DNA of 62,333 bases, counting the filler. It is 16 parts of 16 records of this genome, joined end to end, with 100 filler letters (N's around TTAATTAATTAA, not from the genome) between each part and the next. Parts side by side here need not be neighbours in the genome. Positions count along the whole stretch, not along the records: positions 43,841 to 48,884 come from SRR9670534_408; positions 48,985 to 54,263 come from SRR9670534_413; 14 more parts are not named here. One strand, 5' to 3'. Each line of letters starts with the position of its first letter. Position 1 is the first letter of the stretch. Shown piece after piece: positions 800 through 61,900 of the stretch. A model generated the notes under the pieces. It was not told the origin of the DNA, did no database searches, and was given only the letters and a program-made list of their open reading frames with translations. The position numbers were made by a program, and so were the translations under genes.

Positions 800-2900
800 A
801 TCAGAATAACAGTGCTATGTCTGCTTTTTTCAAGTAGTCTGGCAAGTTGTTCCAGATGTCAACAACTGACACCAAGTAGGACTTTCAATATATATTAGAC
901 ATTACCTCTGCATTCAATCTGATGTTAAGCTTCAGTCTCTGTGATTGAAAGGTTGTAAAAACACTGTATTCACCACTAAAAGCATTATTGAGAAATTTGT
1001 ACATCAAAATTAAGTCATTTTGGATTAAATGCTCTTTAAGAGTTTTTACTTCGAAATATTGACAGTACTCTTCATATGAATAGCCAATGTTGATTCTACT
1101 TTTAGTAATAATTATTCAAAAAGTCCATTATTGCAGCTTCTCCATATCATCAAGCCTTGCATGGTAATGCAGGCACCATAATGAGGCACCATAATCCATC
1201 AACTATCTGATATATTGTATGTAACAGTGGTAGAGTAATGTGGGAGCTTTTGATCTCATACTGCTGAAAAGTTGTTTGGATCAAACAATTACCCTTCTTG
1301 TGGTGATTTTTTTGTGTTCCTGGAAGTTGAGAAAATAATCTACCCATATACCTAGGTCTTTGGTAAGATATGTAACTTTAATCGTAACTTCACCCAATTT
1401 CAGAACTGATTCTGGTGAAGCTGTGCCTATAGGCATAATCTATGTCTTGTCCATGTTAATGGTGAGTCTCCAAGCATATGTCCAATTGTAAATGACCACC
1501 ATTGCTTTTTTTAGTTGCTCTAATTTGCCACCCCAAGTCTTCATGCTGAGATCTATCCATAGTACTTTACTCAGCATTAACATAAGATCATTTATATAGG
1601 ATATAAACAGCACTGGACCAAGCACAGAGTTTTGGACTACACCAGAACTAACTGGTAGTAGTTCTGAGGCTCTGCCCCTAATAATTACCTTTTGATACCT
1701 GTTTTCAAGCCAGCTTTTAATAATCATCAATGTATTACCACAAATATGAAAACTAGACCACAACTTCTTTATAAGAAGTGTGTGGTCAATGCAGTCAAAA
1801 GCTTTAAAAAAATCTAAATATATCATATATCCAGGGGTACTCTTGTTAATCCAAAAATGGCTCTTTATAAGAGTAAATGAGATTGACTTCTGTAGATCTC
1901 TTGTCCATGTAGCAAAATTGTTGCTGGTGAATTAGATTATGCTTTTTGTACCAACCATAGATCTGTTTATTCAAGATTTGTTCAAACACTTTACTTCCCA
2001 CGCATGTTAGTGCTATTGGCCTGTAGTTTTTTACAGTACAGGCACTCCCTGTTTTGAATACAGGTGTAATAAGTGCTGTATGCCAGTCTTCAGGTATAAT
2101 CTTGTATTGTAAAATTAATTGATACAGAAAAAACAATGGTGTTTTCATTGCATCCATTGCCTTGTGAAAGAAGATCTCTGGAATTCCTTTCATGGTTGGG
2201 TATAGTTTGTTATCCAAATTCATCAACTCAATTGCCACATCTGCTTCTGATATAATAAATTTATCAAACCAGTCATCTTCATCAACCAGATCTATGGGGT
2301 CTACCACCAAGTTCTGTGCTGGTTTCAAAGAAACCGAAGGAAAGTATTCATTAATTTTCTGGGTAATTACATCCAGTTCTGTTATGAAGATATTGCCTTC
2401 CTTTATTACTTCAGCCTTTTCCATGGGAGCTAAAACTTTTTTCAAATGCAAAAACATTTTGTGAAAACTACTATTATTAGACCATTTCCAAATCTGTAAC
2501 ATAATTTGACACCATCATTTGGTAGAATTCTTGGTATCTGTCATAGAGCTCTTTAGAAGTTTTATCTTCAAATTTCTTCCAAACATTGTAGTGCTTCTTC
2601 CTTTCTTTTTCAAGCTTCCTTAACCACTTAGAGAACTTTGCAGAATTTTCCAATTTCTTTAATGGGACAAAATTCTCAATAATGCTATCAATGCAATTTT
2701 TAAAAATTTGAAAAAACACTTTGACTGTACACTCTGTGTAGAGTTCTTTCCAATCCTTCTCCACAATGATCCTGTTAATAAGATCAAAATCTGCACTTCT
2801 AAAATCTCAAAAATAGATAGGTTCAAAAGCTACTGAAGAAAAATTACAAAGTAAAAACAATTCTATACCAAGATGATCACATTAGGTCTAGTATCACAAC
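800..2900 (-). mobile_element. Degenerate non-LTR retrotransposon (CR1/L2/Jockey-type LINE ORF2, reverse transcriptase region)
   Basis: Three frameshifted ORFs (2477-2764, 1846-2502, 1440-1826) carry RT motifs NYRPIALTCVGSKVFEQI, YLDFFKAFD, SGVVQNSVLGPVLF and YINDL. The catalytic (Y/F)ADD is missing and there are several stops. Ends approximate. Confidence 0.9.
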
Positions 2901-22963: not shown

Positions 22964-25161
22964 TTAAAACATAATCTTTGGTTCCAAGATCTTCATGTAT
23001 TGTTGTTTGGTGAAAATCAAATGTTCTATCGATGAAAGAGCAATTAAAGCAGTTACAAATGCAAAAACAATGTATGTCAAAACAGTTCCAGTGATAGTGA
23101 CCAAGTATGACACAAGAATGCCCAAAAAAATTTCTGCGAAAAAATATGATACATCCATCTTACCAATTGAAGTACCAATACCATGTGAATCGGCTGATGC
23201 CAAAGATATATCTTGAAAGAAGGTCTAAATAATTTTACCGTTCAAGGAAAACTTTTTATTAATCATTATTAATTAATGTGTATTAACTGTACCAACTACG
23301 TAGATAAGGTAAGTAATACAGTAATGGTATACAGTATACAGTATACTGTATACCGTATACTATATACTATATATACTATAATAGTATCACACAATATACT
23401 ACGTACAATTTGTACGGTACAAATATACAACATGCAATCAAGTATATATAATGTACCATATATATACTTGATTGTTTATTATTATAATTATTATTAATAA
23501 CTAAGACTAGTAAAATATAGGCCTACCTCCCTGTTGCCATCATACATAGTAACCAAAATATAAGGTAATGTGGTTAAGGTAGCATATCCCAGGCCAGTTA
23601 TCATGCACAAGAAATTAACAAGATAAATATTCTTAATAAATAACATTAAAAATGTACAAATGGCAAAAGTTGTCATTCCAAAAACATACATTGTTTTTAC
23701 AGAATACCTTTGTACCAAACCATCCAATAAAAAGGAATAAATGGAAGCAGCAATACAGTGTAGAAATAAACCAAGTGAGCCAACTCTAATGCCCCTGTCA
23801 TAAGCCATGCCTAAAGGTTCATCACTTTCAGCCTCTGGTGAACCTCCATAAAGATACTGACCAACAAAATCAGTGTAAAATAGATTAAATGAAAACATCG
23901 CTACCCATGACCAAAAGTTTGTAATCATCAAACGGGTAAGGGCATAAGGAGTATTGGCCATGTGCGTCCACATTCGTTTAGGCATTAAAAACTTTAAAAT
24001 TACATGTACAAAGAAATATTTTAAATGATTAAAAATAAAGCCAAGGCAGAGAAAACGAAAAGTCGAACGCTCGTAGACTTTAGACATTGAGCTTGATAAG
24101 AATCTTGTCATTGGAAAATTATCAGATCTATCAAAAAAGCTGCTGTTATCGGAAGAACTGCTGTCTTCATCATAAATAGGGTCAGAATGAAGAAAATCCT
24201 CTTCTGTCAAATTTTCTTTATCCATAAATACAAAAGTATTACTCATGTTTCTACCATGAGTTGGTGTCAGTGGTGTACTTGGAGTATTTGGCCAATGCTT
24301 GACATAGGGTTTTTCATCGGCAACAACAAGCGTAATTATTAGTGCAGTTAAGAATAAAATACACAAAATAAAAAAGACAGTACGTTCCTGAGAACCAAAA
24401 AATGCTCCATATGAACTATCATTTATCCAGTCAACTGCTGTAACAAAGTAACCAACACTTCCTCCGATACCAATCATGAATGAGTAAACAATAAAAGCTT
24501 TATGTTCATTTCTACTTCCCTAAACAATAATTTCATTGTTATTTTTATTTGTTCTTAATTATTAATAATATGTAAAAAAATATAGGTACATAAATACAGC
24601 TATTGTGTATACTATGTTTTGTACTGCAAATAGCATTAGTAGTGAATGAATATTTACACTTGCCTTACAAATATCAGACAGGAGAGCTTCACATGGTGTT
24701 AAACCACACTGACTGGTAAGATCTAACAACACAGATCCAAAACATAAAATGGTCATAGCCGTTATTTTAATCAGTTTGCTATTAGCTGCCATGTAGCTTG
24801 CAAAGTAACCAGCATAAGGAATAAGTATTAACGAAATCAACAAAAATATACCAATAATTAGAACAAAAGGTCTTCGACGCCCATACGAACTTGTACAACG
24901 ATCACTTAAGCTTCCAATCATAGGTACAATAAATATAGCAAAAAAAGGACCCGTACCTATCACAATGCCCATTACAGTCTCACTTATACCTGCCTTTAAA
25001 ATCATGGGAGGTAGATACGAAAAACCAGCACTTGCACAAACTTCAAAACAAAACACGACCATGTTCAACAAGATTAACTGTAAAAGGCTAATTTGAAAAT
25101 CTTCACCCTTTGAGCGAACGAAATGCTTTGTATGGGAAAGATGCAAATGACTGGTTTCCAT
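22964..25161 (-). CDS. SLC45: SLC45-family MFS sugar/H+ symporter (prostein/SLC45A3-like)
   Basis: Exons 25161-24664 (or 24658), 24519-23527 and 23224-22964. Motifs: GSLSDRCTSSYGRRRPF, TPCEALLSD, FYTDFVGQYLYGGSP, YDRGIRVGSLGL. Confidence 0.92.
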
Positions 25162-26270
25162 GCCAGGTCAGAAGGTAATTAATAAGGATATTTAACGAGT
25201 AGTATTATGTATTACATAAAATCATTTCTCCAATACCAGTTTTTCGGTATGATCTTTTCTCGAAACTATTTACAGTTAATGAGCTAGATAGTAGTTTCCT
25301 TGAAAACAGATATACAAGGTAGTATCCTAAATATTTAACAAATGTAAGTATGATACTGTATAAACAAAAGATACATCACAAAATGGTGTAGGGATGTAGT
25401 ATAGAATAGGTACACTGTGTACCAACATGGAGTTAGTCTCTCTTCTAACTCCATGGTGTACCAATGTGTGCTTGAAGTACAGTACACTAATACATATGTA
25501 CAGTACACTAATACATGTACAGTACACTAACACATATGAAGTATAGTACATTAATACATGTACACTAATACATATATATTACACTAATCTATGTACAGTA
25601 CGCAGTGCGTACTAGTAGTGCGGTACTACGCACCATTCGTTATCATTATCATAATAATTATGACAACTTGCAATATCTCCCCCTTTTGTAGGTATGTACT
25701 TACTTGGATAATTAGGCAGCAGCTATATAGGCCAGCCTCTGCTATACTAAATAGNNNNNNNNNNNNNNNNNNNNNNNNNNNNNNNNNNNNNNNNNNNNTT
25801 AATTAATTAANNNNNNNNNNNNNNNNNNNNNNNNNNNNNNNNNNNNNNNNNNNNCTGTATATAGCTAGAATCTGAACAATAAACTAATGAACTAATGTGC
25901 TGTGGATGTACGCGTGAAGTTATAGGCTATAATAAAAAATGACCATTTTTTACTTTTGAGGTCAGTAAATAAGTAGGTATTCACTGCTTCTGAATGATAT
26001 GTATTACCAAAGTGCATGTGCAATATATCGTTTGAAAGAGAAATAATTACCTTTTCAAATGAACCTGCAAACAATGCACGTGCATGAACACGTGCAAAAT
26101 AATAAGCTGCCAAATTATTGGGCCAAAAATAAAACTTATATTTATAAGTATGACTATATCGTTTTAAAAAGATTCTTACCTGGGAATGTATAAATTATCT
26201 GATAGACTAATCATTACCTTAGTTACTGCTAAGTAGATGGTTGTTATTCTATCTGTTAACAGTAGTAGCT

Positions 26271-43507: not shown

Positions 43508-46238
43508 TATGTGCATATTGAACCTATTAGATAATTGTAATTTCTTGTTATAATTCATAATTTGCCATATCACGAAAAGTACTACAGCCTGCAATCTACA
43601 ATACAACAGTTTGATAAAAATTATTCTTCCAATACAATAGATAGTTAATTTAAGCAGATGTCACTATTTTTTCTTCTTGCTTTTCATCGCTAGCCTATTA
43701 CAATAGACTCTACGCTTTGATTACTATATTACAATAAGTANNNNNNNNNNNNNNNNNNNNNNNNNNNNNNNNNNNNNNNNNNNNTTAATTAATTAANNNN
43801 NNNNNNNNNNNNNNNNNNNNNNNNNNNNNNNNNNNNNNNNATACTATATACTAACAGTATATACTATATAGTAACGTATAGTAGAAAAATTAAAAGACCT
43901 TCATATTTTAATAATAATAAATATATATTAGATTTAATAATAAATGTATAAAAATTTATGATAAATATTATAATAAATCAATATCAACAGTTATTAATAA
44001 ATACAATGGAAATTTAATAAAAATTAATAATAAACATATAATGACTCAGTAAGTATAACTATTACTATTAATAATAACACAGTTGTAAACAAAATGGATA
44101 ATGTATAAAACATATCAAAAGTAAATAAATATTGATAAAGTAAATAAAATGGTAAATATTATCAATAATTTAAAAAACTAATGAACTTGTAATAACAAAT
44201 AAACATACCTATTTAATATCAATTCCTCTATAAGTTATTATTAACACTAATTATAATTAGTTATTATTATTAAAACGTATCACTTATAGTTCTGTATTAT
44301 ATAATATATTATCTATAAATTATAAAACATAACAATTAATATTCAATAGTAAGTTACTAAATTATAAATACATATATAATTATTATAGTATTATTGTACT
44401 ATAATAATAAATAGTAAAAAATATTAATATATTAAATACCATAATAGTGATATATAATATGTTTATATTATCATTATATCCTAACATAACAATGATAAGT
44501 GTTATTATTAAATTATTTAGAATAAATAATTGCTATTACTATACTATAGATTATAATATTTATCATCAGCATATAATAATAAATATTATTATATAATAGC
44601 CAAGATAAGTATTCCCATGCGGCCACATCATAACCCACACCATCTTGCCTTTCGTGCCGCGCTAATGCATCATAACAAAAATAACAATAGCACAACACCA
44701 CTACTATTACAATTATATATTAATATCTACAATCAAGATCGTTACCACTGGTTAGCAGTAAATAACGCAGATTATCCTTGATTTCTATGGAACCCCATCA
44801 ATCCTTCTCAAGCAGAAAACCCATTAGTTACTTCACATTTATTAATTAATACAAATGCTGATCATTATCATTATCATCATCATAAAAAAGGACAGGAAAG
44901 AAGGCACAGAATTCTAAACCTTCACGTCATCATCCACATAAATATACATGGAACAATAATGACAGGGGGCAAATTAGCTACATAAGCAAAGAGAATGGTT
45001 ATGCTTGGTCCTGGCTGCTGGCCACAATAATTAATTAATGATACAATAGGACCCATATACTTATCTCTTAACAGTTATGCTATAATTAACCATAATCAAA
45101 TATTGGTTTTACGTCACTGCCGTAAAATCAAAATAAACCATTACACTTCAATGTACTAATTACCTTATGGGTTTTGCTTTTATTTACCAAATCCTCATCA
45201 CGAAAGGGGAAAGAACTTCGTAAGAGGATTGGGAATAAGGAGTAAATAAGTTTGTTATTTAAAATAATATTAAATGGGTAAATATTATATCTATATACTA
45301 AGTAAATATATTATTGATATTAAATATGAATATTGTTATATAATTATTATATGTTACTAATAATTAATAAATATATAAAATTAATACTTTTATATGTAAT
45401 AATAAATATGTATTAATTATTAAATATACAATAAAATCATTATATGTATATAATAAGTAAATATATTATTGATATTAATAATGAATATTATATGTTATTA
45501 ATAATTAATTTATATATAAAACTTAATACTTTTATATGTAATTATAAACATGTATTATAATTAAACAGTTATTTGACATTAATAGTATATTATAATGCAA
45601 TACCATGTTAATATCTAAAAATATGTGATTATTAATAATTATATAATATTTAAAATATTTACTTTTATTATTTATAAATAAACAAAAATATATTAATAAT
45701 AATTGTAAGTTATAATTTATAACTAATAAATAATAATAGCTAATAGCTACCCAAACAATAAACAGGCGAATATTATAAAGAAACAAATAAACAAATATTA
45801 GTAACAATTATTAATTATTAATATGGATAACAAATATTAATAATTATAAATATAAATATCAATATATAATATTTAAGATATTTACTTTTATTATTTATAA
45901 ATAAACATATATTAATAATTATAGTTAAATAATAACTACCTAAATGATAAATAAACAAACAAATATTATAAACAAATAAATAAACAAATGTTAATAACAA
46001 TAATTAATATAGATAATAAATATTAATTATTATAAATATAAATATTAATAATAAATATTTCCAAAACAAAATCATTTCATGAATCATTTATTTATTATTA
46101 ATAACCTTCACAACACTTTAAAATAACAACAAATTACATCCCAATTGCCAATTACTACACAGAAAGTTTGCTTATAAGTTATAAACACTACTGGACGACG
46201 ACTACACATAAACCTTATACAAGACTCCTCAAAACAGA

Positions 46239-46244
46239 TTTATT
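46239..46244 (-). terminator. AATAAA polyadenylation signal after DIM1
   Basis: AATAAA on the minus strand 14 nt after the DIM1 stop. Confidence 0.55.
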
Positions 46245-46258
46245 GCAGCAGCCGCTTA

Positions 46259-46687
46259 CTAATAGCGATATTTGGTTGAATAATCCTTTGGCGAAATAAC
46301 CAAACCTCTACCCTTGCGAGACCCTCTATATACAGTTTCTACAATGTCAATGAATTCTTGAGTGTCCTCAAGGGCCCAGTTAATCTTGTTGTTATTGCCA
46401 GTGCCCAGATCAATCATTATATGCTTATTCCGATAGAAAAACATCACGGTACATGGATCGTATAATTCATACATTTTGTTGAAGTCTGGGACCTCCGTGA
46501 CGTCAACCAGGTAAATTATTGCAAAATTTTTAACTTTTTCAGCAACTTTGAATAGGACTTCGTCCATTTTCATGCAGGTGGGGTCCCAATCATGCCCAAA
46601 CCTAACGACAACTACCCGATCTTCTTCGGAGAGGATTGCTTGGTCCACTTGCCAACCATTGTGTAGATGGGGGAGCATGTACGACAT
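46259..46687 (-). CDS. TXNL4A: U5 snRNP Dim1 / thioredoxin-like 4A, intronless, 142 aa
   Basis: MSYMLPHLHNGWQVDQAILSEEDRVVVVRFGHDWDPTCMKMDE...SPKDYSTKYRY, nearly invariant. The true ATG is at 46687. Confidence 0.98.
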   Translation of the reverse strand: MSYMLPHLHNGWQVDQAILSEEDRVVVVRFGHDWDPTCMKMDEVLFKVAEKVKNFAIIYLVDVTEVPDFNKMYELYDPCTVMFFYRNKHIMIDLGTGNNNKINWALEDTQEFIDIVETVYRGSRKGRGLVISPKDYSTKYRY

Positions 46688-46759
46688 CTTTTTAACTAAG
46701 GCTAAATTTAACAAAATTTAAAAAATAACTTAAATTTGAAAATTGTTTTCTTAAAAAGC

Positions 46760-47567
46760 CTAATATCGCCAAAAATAGTCGATGACGGTGGAGAAGAAGC
46801 CGAAACCAGCAGCTCCAAAGATGCCAGCTTTCACGCCTGCTCTAACTCCGAGAATTCCACCAATTATAAAGCCAGAAATGGAACCATTCTTCCAATCGGA
46901 TTTTCCTCGATGCTGAAAAGAATTTTAAAAACTTTATAAATATGGTAATGAGCAGGGACTGGAAAAAGCTTGAGATAATTAGTAGAGAGCCCTGGAACTA
47001 TTGATGAACCATTTACTACACAAACATTATTATGAAAATACATACCGTTTCAATGATACAATCACAGCCAGCAAAAAGAAGTCCGATTATTGCGAAATTT
47101 TTGGCATAGGATAAGGAACGATTCTTCATTTCTCTAAAAACTAATCTGGCAGTTGGTGTTTGGGTTCCAGTAATGTTTGGATCAACTCCAGCAGTAAATA
47201 AACCGAAGACAACTCCAAGTCCAGCACCTAAAAGACGTGAAACAACATTATTATCATATAGTGACGTCATCACTATGAGTCATTTCCAAGATGGCGGCCT
47301 CAGCATGCTAAGCTGAGAAATTAAAAATCGTTGGTTTTAAACCGATTTTAATGTTCTTTAAAGTCACTTACCTCCAACAAAACTGATGCCACTCTTGAAA
47401 GGGCAGCTCTGAAAGAACGCTTGTACCAACATCTCATTCTTCGAAGGTATTTGGTTGTGCATAGGGCCAAAAGATTCGACAATTTTGGGACCAGGAATGG
47501 TTCGTTTCCTTTTGTCACCGATTAACCTTTGTAACATTTCGTGAAATGACGCCGCATTTTCCTCCAT
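46760..47567 (-). CDS. TIMM22: Mitochondrial inner membrane translocase TIM22
   Basis: Exons 47567-47372, 47227-47046 and 46912-46760. Motifs: [68 protein letters not shown]. Confidence 0.95.
47234..47350. promoter_or_regulatory. Promoter-like motif cluster inside TIM22 intron 1
   Basis: CRE TGACGTCA at 47262-47269, AP-1 TGAGTCA at 47276-47282 and YY1 consensus CAAGATGGCGGC at 47287-47298, all within 40 bp. Confidence 0.5.
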
Positions 47568-47589
47568 CGTCCTAATAAAATACAAGAGT

Positions 47590-48321
47590 TCATAGTTGAC
47601 GTTTTCTACGTAATAAAAAGTAAAGGACTATGGCAATAATAACAGGCCAAACAGTAGCAAATCCTATCGTTTTCCAGAAATTCTTGTCCAAAGCTTTCAG
47701 ATAAATCTTTTGTTGTTCCTTCAGGAGAGTTTTAACTACAGTAATTTCTGTTTTTATTTCTGCAATATCATTGTGCATTTTGTCCAAAACGGAACAAACT
47801 TCGTCTGTTACGGACAGAGCTGAAGATGGTATTTTGTCAAGAGTATCCCAAAATATTTCTTCTTCAGGATTGGTTGAAGATGAGCTTTGACAACGAATTC
47901 TTGAACTGGTTTCTGAAATAGTTAATTCAGGTACCTTTGCTTCAGGCTCTTGAACTACAATTTCATTGGTATCTTCATCAACAAGTTCATAAAATGGACC
48001 AAGAACATCCATAAAATCTTGCACAATTCCCGTTTGCGGCATCGTCTCGATTAACGCTTTTAACAACTCAACATATTCTGTCATGCAATCCATTTTGGGT
48101 TTATCACCTAATGCTTTCCAAGCTTCCCATTTCGCTTTCCTAACAACGTCCCAAAAACTGGGCTTTGGTTGCTTGCAGGGTCCTTCTGTGGTTTGCTTGT
48201 AAAGTGCGTAAAATTTCAATAAAACTTCTTTAGACGGCTGGTAGGCACCATCTTTTGGCAGACTTTGTATGACTTTGGTTGCTGCTTCAAATTTTGCCTT
48301 GCATAACAATTCTTCACCCAT
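47590..48321 (-). CDS. ACBD5: Acyl-CoA-binding domain tail-anchored protein (ACBD4/5-like), intronless CDS
   Basis: ACB domain (FEAATKVIQSLPKDG, LKFYALYKQTTEGPC, FWDVVRKAKWEAW), FFAT-like EEEIFWDT, coiled coil, C-terminal TM (VWPVII) with basic tail RRKR. Confidence 0.9.
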   Translation of the reverse strand: MGEELLCKAKFEAATKVIQSLPKDGAYQPSKEVLLKFYALYKQTTEGPCKQPKPSFWDVVRKAKWEAWKALGDKPKMDCMTEYVELLKALIETMPQTGIVQDFMDVLGPFYELVDEDTNEIVVQEPEAKVPELTISETSSRIRCQSSSSTNPEEEIFWDTLDKIPSSALSVTDEVCSVLDKMHNDIAEIKTEITVVKTLLKEQQKIYLKALDKNFWKTIGFATVWPVIIAIVLYFLLRRKRQL

Positions 48322-50321
48322 GGAACGCTATAAAAACTTAATGTTCTTTGCTTTTAGGATAAATCTACATATCGTGTAAATGATTTAGAGCACAATGTAA
48401 CTGGGAGCATAGCTTGACATTTTATAAAAATCGGAGCTGAATCATGCTCAGCATGCTGTATCTACGGTAATAGGTCGAAGTCATACTACATGTACATACA
48501 TACATGTATGGCCAGTTACTGCTCAATTGTACGGTACTGTCAGTACCTACCTATGTAAACAGTATGTACATACAATACTGTACTGTACTGTATGTACAAA
48601 CAGTACTGTACAATTTGCATATGCACATCTGGTATGTTGCATCATGGTATGTATTGAATTACCTATTAAATTTTAATACATTGTACATATTATGTTACCT
48701 AGTATGTACGTAGTACGTAGTACAATTACCTATGTACCGTACATAATGTACCTTACGTAATAATGTACATACCTAATAATATTAGGCTAATAGGTATACA
48801 TAGACTATGTAACATGTGTACCATGATAGTACATAGTATGCAGGGTTGTTAAGCATAAAACCATAGTTGAATAAAACCATGGTTNNNNNNNNNNNNNNNN
48901 NNNNNNNNNNNNNNNNNNNNNNNNNNNNTTAATTAATTAANNNNNNNNNNNNNNNNNNNNNNNNNNNNNNNNNNNNNNNNNNNNTATAGTATATATATAT
49001 AGTATATATATATATATTGCAATTAATGTTATCAATATCTATATTTAATAAATGTATAACCAAAAATGCACCATAACAGGACAAATGCGTGACAGGAATT
49101 ATTAATAATAAATCTGTTTGTCTTTGTTATTAATAAATATTTAATAACAACAATACGCAGTCTTTATTTTGCAAAGGTATTATAACAATGATTTTGCGAT
49201 AATTATGATAATCTCATAATAATCAAAGAACTATAAATTACTTATGTGTAATGCGTATTAACTATCATAGCGGAATGGATGGAGTGGAGGCACTCGAGCC
49301 AGCCCTTATTATGTTTTGTCAACATGACAGAAGAAGGTGTATCAACTATTGATAGACATTGCTTTTATTTCAGCAGGTAGAACAGGAAAGAAATAGGAAG
49401 GACTGCATTTGCCCTTCTTAATGACTAAATGATTAATAATGATTATAATTATGATTAACTAACAATGCAGCAGGCAGGCAGTCGTCAGTCAGCAAGCAGC
49501 ACCATTTACTCAGGTAGTACTACAATGAAGTAGCTGCCTACCTGCTACAGATGGTTTTGGGGTTTATGCTTTCTACCCCGTATGTGTCTTGTTTAATGAA
49601 TAAATTGTGCCTAAGGATACATCCCCTCATATTGAACGTTGTATGTGTGTATGTGACCCGATTTAATCCGTCAGTCCATCCATTATTATCAGTGATCAAA
49701 CATGTTGGCTTACCTTGCTAATAAGACCAAAGAAGTACCAATAGGTATTCCATAATGAGAATAAACCAGCATAACTAAGCTTTAGTTTCCATGTTTCGTG
49801 ATAATCTGTTAGCTATTGAATCGCTGTTTATATTAAATAAACTATTATCTTGATCCAGCTTTTCCTGGGTAAGCAATCAACCCATGGTTTGTCATTATTA
49901 TTATTATCGTGTTATTTTACAATATTATTATATGTGTGTGTATACAACGTATTATTTGCTGACAAAGTTTACAATCTTACAAATTCCAATAAATGTTGCT
50001 TTGGGCTTATTTATTTTCAATATACTACAAAGTAATAAATGCCCATTGTAATCAACAAATGCACCATGTAATAGTTAGTTAGGTAGGTAAAACATAAAAG
50101 TAAAAGTATATGTTTTCACAGTATTGTGTGAGATAGGTAAACACATAAGAAGGTGAGATGATCATCAACACATGACCAATAATCATATGTTTAATCTATA
50201 GATACACAATAATATTATGGTACAGACGTAATTCTCAGAGTTCGAAATTAATAAAACGCCACAAAAACGCTAAAATTTTAATAATCGAAATAAAATCAGG
50301 TAAACACAAAAGGATACCTAT

Positions 50322-58986: not shown

Positions 58987-61900
58987 TTTTCAATCCTAGA
59001 AAAGCTGGTTTCTATTTAGTAGTGGACCTAGCAGCAAAACATGAACATCTGTTGTTTACTAATAGTAGGTATTGATTTTAACATTATGTTAGATAGTTAA
59101 AGTATCATAGCTTGCAATTTATGCTCCTAATATAAGTTTTCCACGGTAAAGCTATAAATAATAGATGTTTTAGTATCAATGTCCTAATCCATCACAGGGT
59201 CAGAAATGGTTGAAGTTTCAATTAAATTGTCAGTTTTATTATTATTAATAATAATAGCTAGGATGTTGGTGATAGAGTCCTTAAACTAGCTACATAGGTA
59301 ATTGCTAAGATAGCTACATAGAAATTACACATACATTATTGTAACAACATGTTTTATTATTAATAACAAATGATTTATCAGTTGTGAATTAATATGTCAG
59401 AAATTTTGAAATTTATTCCACAAAATTGATCATCACATGGGCTGCAAATTGCAATTATTGATTTTTATCCCAACTAATGTTGTTGCTCTATGGTTAGAAG
59501 TCAAAATATAAAATACATAGTCGGATACTATCCGATTAGTAACCAGATCTCTGGATATGATTTCCCTGGTTGATTATTATTAATAATAGCCATCATTATA
59601 TAATAATATCAGTAGCAGTAAATTGTCATATTTCGTCAGGTGTATTACATGAGGTTTGTCATGAATCATTCACTATGTATATGATACAGCTAAGGGATAG
59701 GAAGTTGTCAGCAACATAGAACCAGAGAGTCTCTTGGGTTCTCTTCAGAATCAATATCTAAATTTGTAATTGCTGAAATAGATGTCTTTATTTTTGGGAA
59801 TTGTTGAGTCACATAGCATAAACAAATACATATATAGCATTCCATTGGAAACTGTTCTCATAACTTTGTTACTAGCTTTTGTTGAAATTTTCATGTTGCT
59901 GTTGCAAGATCAAATACCCTATAAAATATTATTAAAATACTCAAAAATCATGTACAAACATTGTACTACAAAGCAAATGATAAAATCGTTATCATAAGTT
60001 ATGATTCATAACACAATATTATAACAAACAAGTATATTAAACTACAATAAGACTTGTAATAAACTATAATAAAAACATATGTAATACAGGTACCCTAGTG
60101 CTAAAAGTTGTCCTGTTNNNNNNNNNNNNNNNNNNNNNNNNNNNNNNNNNNNNNNNNNNNNTTAATTAATTAANNNNNNNNNNNNNNNNNNNNNNNNNNN
60201 NNNNNNNNNNNNNNNNNATAAATATAAATAAAAAATAAAAAATTTATTAAATTATTATAAATAATGTAAGTTTTATTACTATTTTTAATAAGTTATAACT
60301 ACTATTTATAATTAATGATGAAAAATTATCATTTATACTGGTAAAAAGTTATGGTTTATATAGGTTTGTAATATAGTTTGATTAATTATCATGTATATCT
60401 AAAAAAAGCATATTTTATTGTCATTATTAAGTATAGAATAATAAAATAAGAAATGCTTTTTATAATTACACTTACAGTTTCTGTTTGAAGTTATTATATT
60501 ACTAATAATGATGAAATGTTATCATATTTTAATTTATTCTTATAAAAAGAGTAATAGTTAATTATTATTAATCATTACATTTGATTATTATTAGCAATTT
60601 ATTAATAATGTGTCAACAGATTTACAATTTAAGATGAGAGTGAAGAAACAAAAGCACATATTTTTTCTTTTTATGTGAAAAATAAGCAGACACTTAGATT
60701 CAAACCTGGGTTCAGGAAATAGAAAGCTAAAGTGCTAATCACTGAGTCATGTATCTATTAATATATTATAAGGAATAAGAAATAATATCAAAAAATAGTT
60801 GAGAGGTTGAATTTAAATCATTGCCATTATCATCATGGTAATTGTCCTCAACAGTGTTAAGTCAGTACTCAAAAACATTAATTACTGCTTGTTTCCTTGC
60901 TTATTAAGGTAAAAATGCTTTCTAGTTACCGCCATTTTAAATGAAGTATTAGATCGACATCTTTTGGCTTTAGGTAAATGTCAAATGTCATTGCTATTGG
61001 CATAGTAAACTTATGGTTGAATTTTGAATTTATAGAAAGCAGTTTTGAAAACATTTCATAAAGGGTTTCTGAGTGTGAAAAGCTCGAATATGGACTCCAC
61101 TGCTTGTAAAAACGCTTCATGTGAGCGCTAAAACGCTGCATAGAAATGATTGTACCTGCTCATTCAAACCAGTGCTATGTAGAAATTAGCATAAAAACAA
61201 GTAGGCAAAAAGGATGAAATATAAATAATATAAGGTGATGATAAAACAAGTTTTATATAATTGTGCATATATTTAAAATATATCTCTTGATTAATAAACT
61301 AAACTAATGATACATGATTTAGAGTATTATCGTTAACGATAACAATTGTATGTTAGGCACAAAAAATGACCTAATTGAAGGAATAAAATAGCAGTTGACC
61401 AGACCAACAATTAATAATAATGAACCTGACATTATTATTATTATAATATATTATTATCATTAAACAGCATGCTTTTTAATAATAATAAACAGTCTTGAGG
61501 AACAATTGGGTTTTGACTGGATATACGGTAAGTCATTCAAAAACGTCATACATACATATTATACAATAATAAAATTAATATTACGAAAATGTTACTATTA
61601 TAATAGATATTCCTAGGCATATATAGGTTTATTAACCTAGAATAATGATTATAAATGTTTTACTTTATTAAGGGTTTTCCAACCATAAATAAAACCAATA
61701 GATTAGAACTAATTCTGCTATAGTGATTAATAATCACTATAATTATAATCATTCAAGGGCAATAGGCATGAGTAATCAGTAATAGTAGTCCTGAAACTAA
61801 TACTTTCTTTTGTGTAAGATTGAAATTAATAGCTTCTATAATTAGAGCTATTTACTTAATAATATCGGTAATCATTGAGAAGCAATTATGTAGGTGTGGA

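Follow-up and report, generated by a model that had tools for sequence, protein, structure and literature searches.

How are three genes expressed when they follow one another on a single strand with almost no DNA between them? The question is raised by a cluster of an ACBD5-like gene, TIM22, and DIM1/TXNL4A in an animal genome, for which it had been predicted that the genes form an operon resolved by spliced-leader (SL) trans-splicing. The window, i.e., the whole 62-kb stretch of DNA that was analyzed, is made of about 16 short contigs of 2 to 6.5 kb, separated by spacers of 44 N, 12 nt, and another 44 N. Because these are joined contigs, spacing was judged only inside the 5-kb contig that carries the cluster.

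Organization of the cluster

All three genes lie on the minus strand of a single contig of 5,044 bases (43841-48884), arranged head to tail with the intronless ACBD5-like gene first, the three-exon TIM22 gene second, and the intronless DIM1/TXNL4A gene last. The elements are as follows.

48321-47590, minus strand: ACBD5-like ORF, a single exon of 732 nt encoding 243 aa, with the stop codon TGA at 47592-47590
47568-47589, minus strand: gap 1, the 22 nt between the ACBD5 stop and the TIM22 ATG
46760-47567, minus strand: TIM22 gene, with its ATG at 47567 and a 531-nt coding sequence for 176 aa
47567-47372, 47227-47046, and 46912-46760, minus strand: TIM22 exons, whose joined frame is open
47371-47228 (144 nt) and 47045-46913 (133 nt), minus strand: TIM22 introns, both GT..AG
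46688-46759, minus strand: gap 2, 72 nt, A/T-rich, between the TIM22 stop and the DIM1 ATG
46259-46687, minus strand: DIM1/TXNL4A ORF, a single exon encoding 142 aa

The first protein contains an N-terminal acyl-CoA-binding (ACB) domain (Pfam ACBP, 1.9e-26), for which the best match in a search of PDB sequences is ACBD5 (3flv, 7e-34, against 7.4e-26 for ACBD4); a protein search likewise retrieves ACBD5 of many animals at 140 to 151 bits. Its C-terminus, a hydrophobic stretch followed by RRKRQL, has the form of a tail anchor. With both the ACB domain and the membrane anchor in place, we identify it from its sequence as the tail-anchored acyl-CoA-binding protein ACBD5, which would be a peroxisomal protein. 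The product of the three-exon gene belongs to the Tim17 family of Pfam (9.4e-13). Its exons are collinear with human TIM22 (7cgp_A) at residues 25-79, 83-144, and 146-194 in the search of PDB sequences, the second match is yeast Tim22, and chains of TIM17 or TIM23 are absent among the matches listed; these matches identify the gene as TIM22 and not as TIM17 or TIM23. The third protein matches the Pfam DIM1 family (2.3e-69) and human U5-15kD/TXNL4A over residues 1-142 (6.6e-93, against 9.7e-30 for TXNL4B, in the same kind of search). On these matches the DIM1 of this locus is the spliceosomal U5 snRNP 15-kDa protein TXNL4A and not the rRNA dimethylase of the same name. The three proteins are unrelated, and all are housekeeping proteins.

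Recomputation of the coordinates left the framework of the original prediction standing: three unrelated housekeeping genes with intact frames share the minus strand of one contig, 22 nt (47568-47589) separate the ACBD5 stop from the TIM22 ATG, and the 72-nt U-rich gap before the DIM1 ATG runs from 46759 to 46688, with 33 T and 27 A. It is highly improbable that this compactness is an artifact of a misassembled or chimeric contig, or that ACBD5 and DIM1 are unexpressed processed retrocopies beside TIM22. The assembly is indeed highly fragmented, and both ACBD5 and DIM1 are without introns here. However, the junctions between the three genes are unique sequence without N, no poly(A) remnant is found in either gap, and the three intact frames are full length relative to the solved human proteins, DIM1 matching human TXNL4A across all of its residues. 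Intron-poor genes also occur on other contigs of the window, among them a 570-aa single-exon gene and the genes for a FoxG and a pentraxin, both without introns.

Requirement for separate 5' ends

The 22 and 72 nt between the genes leave no room for each of them to have a promoter, 5'UTR, 3'UTR, and poly(A) site of the usual kind. Leaky scanning from a polycistronic mRNA to TIM22 or DIM1 is excluded because the ACBD5 ORF contains 16 ATGs and the TIM22 coding sequence 9; the short or AUG-poor upstream ORF that marks leaky scanning or re-initiation of the Drosophila or green-alga type is absent here. Read-through fusion was likewise rejected. The frames of ACBD5 and TIM22 differ; those of TIM22 and DIM1 coincide, but the stop-to-stop ORF in the DIM1 frame begins only at 46717, so that at least one stop in that frame lies inside gap 2. 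With scanning and read-through excluded, each downstream gene needs a 5' end of its own, and the acceptor-like sites described below point to splicing as the source of these ends.

Acceptor-like sites before the three start codons

Each of the three start codons is closely preceded by a T-rich sequence ending in AG.

48328-48339, minus strand: AAGTTTTTATAG, before ACBD5, ending with G 48328, 6 nt before the ATG
47585-47572, minus strand: TTGTATTTTATTAG, in gap 1, ending 4 nt before the TIM22 ATG, with 7 T in 10 nt
ending at 46702, minus strand: GTTAAATTTAG, the best acceptor-like site of gap 2

The site before ACBD5 has 6 T in the 10 nt preceding its AG and a T at position -3. As for that of gap 1, a random 22-nt stretch contains a comparable site (at least 7 T in the 10 nt before YAG) 1.1% of the time; of all 5,909 AGs in the window, 2.3% reach this T-richness. 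Splicing at 47572 would also remove the sole ATG upstream of the TIM22 start, an out-of-frame ATG at 47593-47591 (-26) that overlaps the ACBD5 stop codon. Gap 2 contains three AGs, with G at 46702, 46696, and 46688, upstream of the DIM1 ATG by 14, 8, and 0 nt; a random 72-nt stretch has a site with at least 6 T 17% of the time, and at this chance rate the evidence from gap 2 taken alone is not significant.

With T-count thresholds that were set after the sites had been inspected, a site with at least 6 T lies no more than 20 nt upstream of the ATG in all three cluster genes (the actual distances are 4 to 14 nt), as against 5.5% of 2,649 window ATGs and none of the seven other gene starts in the window. 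This bears out the predicted presence of a T-rich YAG before each ATG. The cluster sites are as T-rich as 14 intron acceptors from the window itself (4 to 8 T in 10 nt), a reference set picked by hand via a heuristic and not from transcripts. A position weight matrix built from these 14 gave leave-one-out scores of -6.3 to 10.6 and was replaced by the simple T count because it was too noisy.

Poly(A) signals, promoter motifs, and possible independent transcription

A search for signals of 3' end formation and initiation adds three motifs.

46239-46244, minus strand: AATAAA, 15 nt after the DIM1 stop
47347-47352, minus strand: ATTAAA in TIM22 intron 1, 238 nt after the ACBD5 stop
48420-48426, minus strand: TATAAAA, about 95 nt upstream of the ACBD5 acceptor-like site

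Neither AATAAA nor ATTAAA occurs in gap 1 or gap 2, and the only AATAAA between 48450 and 46100 that lies outside the ACBD5 coding sequence is the one after DIM1, in agreement with what had been claimed of both gaps and of the 3' flank of the cluster. The missing hexamers in the gaps are themselves weak evidence because only 0.23 AATAAA would be expected in 94 nt. The motif at 46244-46239 is likely the common 3' end signal of the unit. The TATAAAA is a possible, if weak, candidate for its core promoter, and it may be there by chance because TATAAA occurs 158 times on the two strands of the window.

These motifs also bear on an unlikely alternative, in which three independent genes are packed so tightly that their UTRs overlap, the promoters of TIM22 and DIM1 lying inside the gene upstream. 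The ACBD5 mRNA would then end in TIM22 intron 1 and the TIM22 mRNA inside or after DIM1, and the acceptor-like motifs would be unused or belong to short 5'UTR introns. The ATTAAA at 47352 is suitably placed for this, and may be an alternative poly(A) signal for ACBD5, whose mRNA would then extend over TIM22 exon 1. The 150 nt preceding the DIM1 ATG contain no ATG, and any transcription start within them would yield a clean leader. The gap 2 site does not rise above chance, and T-rich AG motifs are common in a genome of 30% GC, where 8.7% of the window's AGs have at least 6 T in 10 nt. Against this, chance is unlikely to place strong acceptor-like sites no more than 14 nt from the ATG in three genes out of three (0.055 cubed), and no TATAAA is found near the TIM22 or the DIM1 start. 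Moreover, promoters would be required within conserved coding sequence, and transcription of TIM22 would have to start no more than 25 nt from its ATG if the out-of-frame ATG is to be avoided.

Possible resolution by cis-splicing from a common promoter

A second alternative, of about the same low probability, dispenses with a spliced leader. A promoter common to the three genes and a noncoding 5' exon upstream of ACBD5 would be followed by alternative cis-splicing to the acceptor of ACBD5, TIM22, or DIM1. All transcripts would terminate at the AATAAA that follows DIM1, the upstream ORFs would be lost as part of an intron, and any long polycistronic mRNA would express its first ORF only. The cholinergic VAChT/ChAT locus is an example of a common promoter resolved by cis-splicing. 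Such an arrangement accounts equally well for acceptor-like sites at all three starts, and the introns required, of about 1.0 to 2.1 kb, do not greatly exceed the maximum length inferred for an intron of the window (about 1 kb). Between the TATAAAA and the ACBD5 acceptor-like site no donor-like GT scores above 0; five donor-like sites are found 222 to 444 nt upstream of that acceptor, with scores of 8.0 to 9.4, as against 6.6 to 12.9 for intron donors in the window. These sit, however, in a GTA-rich low-complexity stretch in which such motifs arise by composition, and the 5' exon could not be defined. If all forms used a single poly(A) site, the ACBD5 mRNA would also carry two intact ORFs in a 3'UTR longer than 1.3 kb.

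Precedents come from Drosophila, for which 159 dicistronic pairs, 7 tricistronic and 2 tetracistronic loci, and 130 genes with a common promoter and common 5' noncoding exons (the "rule-benders" of FlyBase) are reported (PMC4528330). Its loci expressed only as polycistronic forms have stop-to-start distances of -34 to 319 nt, and some monocistronic forms are products of alternative splicing or of internal promoters (PMC4528330). Insects and vertebrates are, in addition, stated to lack SL trans-splicing (PMC7986045). As here, the Drosophila loci place unrelated conserved ORFs in series, the single transcript being a proposal in our case. Yet, on the counts given, even Drosophila has few such runs of three genes (PMC4528330). 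Ribosomes there are believed to translate the downstream ORF of the polycistronic mRNA through an IRES or re-scanning, whereas scanning is excluded for the present cluster, and a purely polycistronic mRNA of the Drosophila type needs none of the acceptor-like sites that stand here before every ATG.

A candidate trans-spliced operon

The reading that the three genes are transcribed as a unit and make up an operon like those of tunicates or of the SL1-type we regard as about evenly balanced between true and false. The sequence-level part of the polycistronic reading held up, namely tight spacing, acceptor-like sites at all three ATGs, and downstream ORFs that are unreachable by scanning. Same-strand genes at very short intercistronic distances, as in an SL-resolved operon, are what the cluster presents (22 and 72 nt, minus strand). 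As to acceptors, the acceptor-like sites at all three starts may be unpaired; donor-like sites are found 222 to 444 nt upstream of the first of them. Three-gene clusters as tight as ACBD5-TIM22-DIM1 are common in operon-bearing genomes and rare elsewhere.

From this anatomy we infer a single promoter and a polycistronic precursor. Transcription would begin upstream of ACBD5, cross all three genes, and extend as far as the AATAAA at 46244. A spliced leader, presumed to exist in the host, would then be trans-spliced onto the unpaired acceptor upstream of each ATG, after 48328 for ACBD5, after 47572 for TIM22, and after 46702, 46696, or 46688 for DIM1, providing each mRNA with a capped 5' end. 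The ACBD5 and TIM22 mRNAs would use no canonical hexamer; their 3' ends would arise at the acceptor that follows or beside it, presumably through coupling to trans-splicing. A search of the 62-kb window with Rfam gave no match at the gathering score, and no SL RNA gene was found in the window. At E-values up to 1 the same search returns five weak miRNA-like matches in a low-complexity stretch at 23304-23475, which are irrelevant to the cluster.

Comparison with known operons

In its anatomy the cluster most resembles the operons of the tunicates Ciona intestinalis and Oikopleura dioica. In both, housekeeping genes with no relation to one another share a strand and are separated by hardly any DNA, an acceptor (an acceptor-like site in the present cluster) stands directly before the downstream cistron, and the upstream cistrons are without AATAAA (here, outside coding sequence). 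The median intercistronic distance is given as 1 bp in Ciona and 31 to 33 bp in Oikopleura (PMC7986045), and gap 2, at 72 nt, exceeds the typical Ciona spacing. For the present cluster, the leader, the SL RNA gene, and the polycistronic precursor are predicted elements.

The operons of C. elegans are also same-strand clusters with an unpaired acceptor before the downstream genes, to which the acceptor-like sites in the DNA correspond here. In the accounts cited, the SL2-type has an A/U-rich spacer of about 100 nt, comparable to gap 2, and the minor SL1-type a near-zero spacer, comparable to gap 1 (PMC1488885; PMC7986045). The characterized SL1-type operons, however, retain AATAAA in the upstream cistron (PMC1488885), which the gaps here lack. 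In the chaetognath Paraspadella gotoi, 18% of genes are reported to lie in operons, defined as at least two genes less than 250 bp apart of which at least one carries a leader, with an enrichment in housekeeping metabolism (PMC12460157). Short spacing is common to these and to the present cluster, although the evidence for leaders in P. gotoi comes from RNA-seq (PMC12460157).

We found no TIM22 or ACBD5 relative in the flanks of any of 82 other DIM1 loci (tblastn, E-values up to 0.01), comprising 80 from metagenome contigs and two from assemblies labeled as prokaryotic. With linkage at 0 of 82, no conservation backs a functional unit, but this says little because the loci are probably those of distant eukaryotes. 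In the literature on operons, trans-splicing, and polycistronic loci, supplementary operon lists aside, we found no paper describing an ACBD5-TIM22-DIM1 linkage.

Host lineage and significance

The host is a bilaterian animal for which the protein searches gave no close relative. The best relatives of one window protein, which is TMEM63-like, reach 37% identity, and the FoxG of the window resembles FoxG from many bilaterian phyla. An affinity to hemipteran insects was considered and dropped because the ACBD5 proteins of aphid, amphioxus, and rat score almost alike (140 to 148 bits). No tunicate protein is among the named matches of the protein searches, and for this reason membership in the tunicates is not indicated; the same searches gave no sign of nematode affinity.

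What the cluster means depends on this placement. Should the host be a tunicate, chaetognath, rotifer, flatworm, or nematode, the cluster would be an ordinary operon, of use mainly for correct gene annotation, with three genes in place of one fused model. If it is an SL-type operon, it probably adds to an already known class, and it strikes us as distinctly unlikely that it is a genuine SL-resolved operon from animals in which neither SL trans-splicing nor operons have been described. Were the latter true, metazoan operons would have arisen independently once more, or been retained unnoticed, in a tunicate-like form whose upstream 3' end is made without AATAAA and may be coupled to trans-splicing. 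More generally, if confirmed, an operon with hardly any DNA between its cistrons, from an animal without a near named relative in protein searches, would bear on how the upstream 3' end forms when an acceptor lies 17 nt past the stop codon and AAUAAA is absent, and on the number of times that operons and leader trans-splicing evolved among animals.

The three-gene cluster

On the minus strand of one contig of 5,044 bases (43841-48884; 28.8% GC), an ACBD5-like gene, TIM22 and DIM1 (the gene for the U5 snRNP 15-kDa protein, TXNL4A) follow one another head to tail, with the whole cluster falling inside that contig:

48321 to 47590, minus strand: ACBD5-like ORF, 243 aa
47589-47568, minus strand: gap 1, from the ACBD5 stop to the TIM22 ATG, 22 nt
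47567-47372, 47227-47046 and 46912-46760, minus strand: TIM22 exons (start 47567), 176 aa, joined frame open; two GT..AG introns of 144 and 133 nt
46759-46688, minus strand: gap 2, from the TIM22 stop to the DIM1 ATG, 72 nt, A/T-rich (33 T and 27 A)
46687-46259, minus strand: DIM1 ORF, 142 aa
46244-46239, minus strand: AATAAA, 15 nt past the DIM1 stop

Read on the minus strand, the cluster coordinates and sequences of the original prediction are correct, as are its gap sizes of 22 and 72 nt. The prediction of three unrelated housekeeping genes is likewise borne out: judged by their Pfam and solved-structure matches, all three are intact and full-length. The Pfam assignments are to ACBP (1.9e-26), the Tim17 family (9.4e-13) and DIM1 (2.3e-69). 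In the search of solved structures, TIM22 exons 1-3 are collinear with residues 25-79, 83-144 and 146-194 of human TIM22, with no TIM17 or TIM23 chain among the listed matches, and all 142 residues of the DIM1 ORF are matched by human U5-15kD/TXNL4A (6.6e-93), TXNL4B being far weaker. The ACB domain is closer to that of ACBD5 (7e-34) than to that of ACBD4 (7.4e-26), and the C-terminus of the protein, where basic residues come after a hydrophobic stretch, resembles that of the tail-anchored ACBD5.

Genomic surroundings

The window comprises about 16 contigs of about 2 to 6.5 kb each and contains 30 N-runs of exactly 44 N, paired around a 12-nt linker, so that each spacer reads 44 N + TTAATTAATTAA + 44 N (e.g., 48885-48984 and 43741-43840). 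Because these 62,333 bases represent several molecules, distances from the cluster to genes on other contigs are uninformative, and the order, orientation and mutual distance of the contigs carry no information. GC content is about 30% throughout, and the genes that Pfam and ORF calls identify on the other contigs are ordinary animal ones:

51494-50325, minus strand: intronless FoxG/sloppy-paired-type forkhead gene, 390 aa
21718-20009, minus strand: TMEM63/CSC1-like gene
58986-58018, minus strand: pentraxin-domain protein
ATG 41768, plus strand: Rab32/38-like gene
ATG 9564, minus strand: one of the galactosyltransferases
Elsewhere on other contigs: a Ski/Sno/Dac gene, a PDE1 gene, an Ig/FN3 gene, an SLC45-like transporter and a LINE-like reverse transcriptase

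At 885-2806 (minus strand) are pieces of a non-LTR retrotransposon whose reading frames are disrupted; Pfam RVT_1 is matched there at 1443-1931 (1.4e-10), and the adjoining ORFs are in other frames. The 2.4 kb downstream of DIM1 (43841-46238; 19.7% GC) lack any ATG-initiated ORF of at least 60 aa and consist mostly of degenerate A/T-rich tandem repeats with periods of 13-141 nt. Low-complexity stretches rich in GTA/TAC, with imperfect 14-16-nt repeats, recur across several contigs (48480-48880, 23273-23497, 25327-25578) and account for many donor-like GTA motifs and weak miRNA-like Rfam matches.

Affinity of the host

No protein of the window has a near-identical database entry. The ACBD5 scores are nearly equal for aphids, amphioxus and rat (140-148 bits), and the FoxG protein shares 47-50% identity, across some 70% of its length, with FoxG from a hemichordate, a brachiopod, an onychophoran and a sea cucumber; FoxG of hemichordates, brachiopods, onychophorans, priapulids and echinoderms resembles it to the same degree. 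Its conservation is much stronger than that of the TMEM63-like gene, a single exon of 570 aa whose best relatives among 1.84 billion representatives reach 37% identity and none higher, and for which only 85 clusters score below 1e-30; the named best relatives come from a sea spider, krill, a sea cucumber, flatworms, fishes, mites and an anemone. Either this exon comes from a divergent paralogue, or it indicates that the host lineage is isolated. By these similarities, the host is a bilaterian with no closely related species sequenced and annotated in the collections searched.

Separate 5' ends for TIM22 and DIM1

Several ways of expressing the downstream genes are at odds with the sequence. 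Leaky scanning on a polycistronic mRNA is rejected because the downstream starts are unreachable past the 16 ATGs of the ACBD5 ORF and the 9 of the TIM22 coding sequence. Read-through fusion of ACBD5 with TIM22 is rejected by their differing frames; those of TIM22 and DIM1 coincide, yet the stop-to-stop ORF of the DIM1 frame starts only at 46717, so that at least one in-frame stop lies inside gap 2. An out-of-frame ATG, 26 nt upstream of the TIM22 start and overlapping the ACBD5 stop codon, means that the 5' end of TIM22 mRNA must either lie no more than 25 nt from the start codon or be made by splicing at 47572; a remote internal start is thereby rejected for this gene. As the frames and ATGs stand, TIM22 and DIM1 must each have a 5' end of their own, and the presence of an acceptor just ahead of every ATG suggests that splicing makes these ends. 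That the cluster is instead an assembly artefact or a set of retrocopies is very improbable, since its frames are intact and conserved. No trace of a poly(A) tail is left in either gap, and genes on other contigs are also intron-poor, which makes it unlikely that ACBD5 and DIM1 are dead retrocopies.

Acceptor-like sites ahead of the ATGs

We compared the T-rich YAG sites ahead of the three genes, each denoted by its final G, with 14 intron acceptors picked from the window by a frame-and-donor heuristic rather than from transcripts, in which 4-8 of the 10 nt preceding AG are T. The site upstream of TIM22 (47572, 4 nt from the ATG) has 7 T of 10, and those upstream of ACBD5 (48328, 6 nt) and, as the best one there, of DIM1 (46702, 14 nt) have 6 each. 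Among all 5,909 AGs in the window, 2.3% have at least 7 T and 8.7% at least 6. A site matching that of TIM22 in quality occurs in 1.1% of random 22-nt stretches, and one with at least 6 T in 17% of random 72-nt stretches; the gap-2 acceptors alone are not above chance. A site with at least 6 T within 20 nt upstream precedes all three ATGs of the cluster, 5.5% of window ATGs (n=2,649) and 0/7 other definable gene starts, two of which (the Rab gene and one galactosyltransferase) have one within 40 nt. The T-count thresholds were set after the sites were seen, so these figures are only indicative; as such, the gap-1 acceptor and the three-of-three pattern exceed chance.

The intronless pentraxin gene, which encodes a secreted protein (Pfam Pentaxin, 2.1e-17), has an acceptor-like site (58996-59009) ending 9 nt from its ATG, where the 10 nt ahead of AG include 5 T and 8 pyrimidines, and the sites of the Rab and galactosyltransferase genes lie 32-34 nt upstream. 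With a threshold of at least 5 T within 40 nt, a site is present at 4/7 other genes, compared with a background of 25% (P = 0.07). Such sites could mean that 5'UTR introns or trans-splicing are widespread.

A candidate operon and its alternatives

The cluster may be an operon of the spliced leader (SL) type, as originally predicted; this is our best reading, which we hold about midway between acceptance and doubt. A single promoter upstream of ACBD5 would give rise to one precursor extending to the AATAAA past DIM1; a leader would be joined by trans-splicing to the acceptor ahead of each ATG, and the 3' ends of the upstream mRNAs would be made at or beside the next acceptor. A TATAAAA at 48426-48420, with no donor-like GT between it and the ACBD5 acceptor, is a weak candidate for the promoter. 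As predicted, AATAAA is missing from both gaps and present after DIM1, where it is the sole non-coding one from 48450 to 46100; its absence from the gaps is weak evidence, because only 0.23 would be expected in 94 nt. In the window, no Rfam family reaches its gathering score, and a cutoff relaxed to E = 1 brings in only weak miRNA-like matches within a low-complexity stretch.

The three acceptor-like sites are explained equally well by a shared promoter with cis-splicing, in which a common non-coding 5' exon is alternatively spliced to each of them and all transcripts end after DIM1. At 222-444 nt upstream of the first acceptor there are five donor-like sites, but these fall within a GTA-rich low-complexity stretch; for Drosophila, passages of one paper report 159 dicistronic pairs, as well as 130 genes whose promoter and 5' non-coding exons are shared (PMC4528330). 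On balance such an arrangement is unlikely. Independent promoters within the upstream genes, with overlapping UTRs, would accommodate the sole ATTAAA from 48450 to 46100 (in TIM22 intron 1, at 47352) and the 150 nt ahead of DIM1 that lack an ATG; they fit poorly, however, with acceptors at three of three genes and with the ATG at -26 of TIM22, and we consider them improbable.

Comparison with known operons

The SL-type operon reading has close anatomical counterparts. Passages of Satou et al. (2006; PMC1488885) describe Ciona operons as mostly without intercistronic DNA and those of Oikopleura as having 23-30 nt between cistrons, likewise without AATAAA; Wenzel et al. (2021; PMC7986045) put the median distance between cistrons at 1 bp for Ciona and 31-33 bp for Oikopleura. 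The anatomy of the cluster matches all of these. Of the defining features of SL-resolved operons, it shows only the short same-strand spacing. Its acceptor-like sites may or may not be unpaired, and membership in that class is not established. Among the papers searched, none turned up for the ACBD5-TIM22-DIM1 trio as an operon, trans-spliced or polycistronic, and TIM22 or ACBD5 is near none of 82 DIM1 loci on metagenome and prokaryote-labelled contigs, which come from eukaryotes, perhaps distant ones. It is a slim prospect that the cluster is an SL-type operon and that such operons are otherwise not known from its lineage.

Excerpts of two papers place 18% of chaetognath genes in operons (PMC12460157) and count 7 tricistronic and 2 tetracistronic loci in Drosophila (PMC4528330). 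Tight three-gene clusters are frequent where operons exist and rare elsewhere, a prior that favors the operon reading and points the same way as the cluster itself, which, on its DNA, would work like a tunicate-type or C. elegans SL1-type operon.
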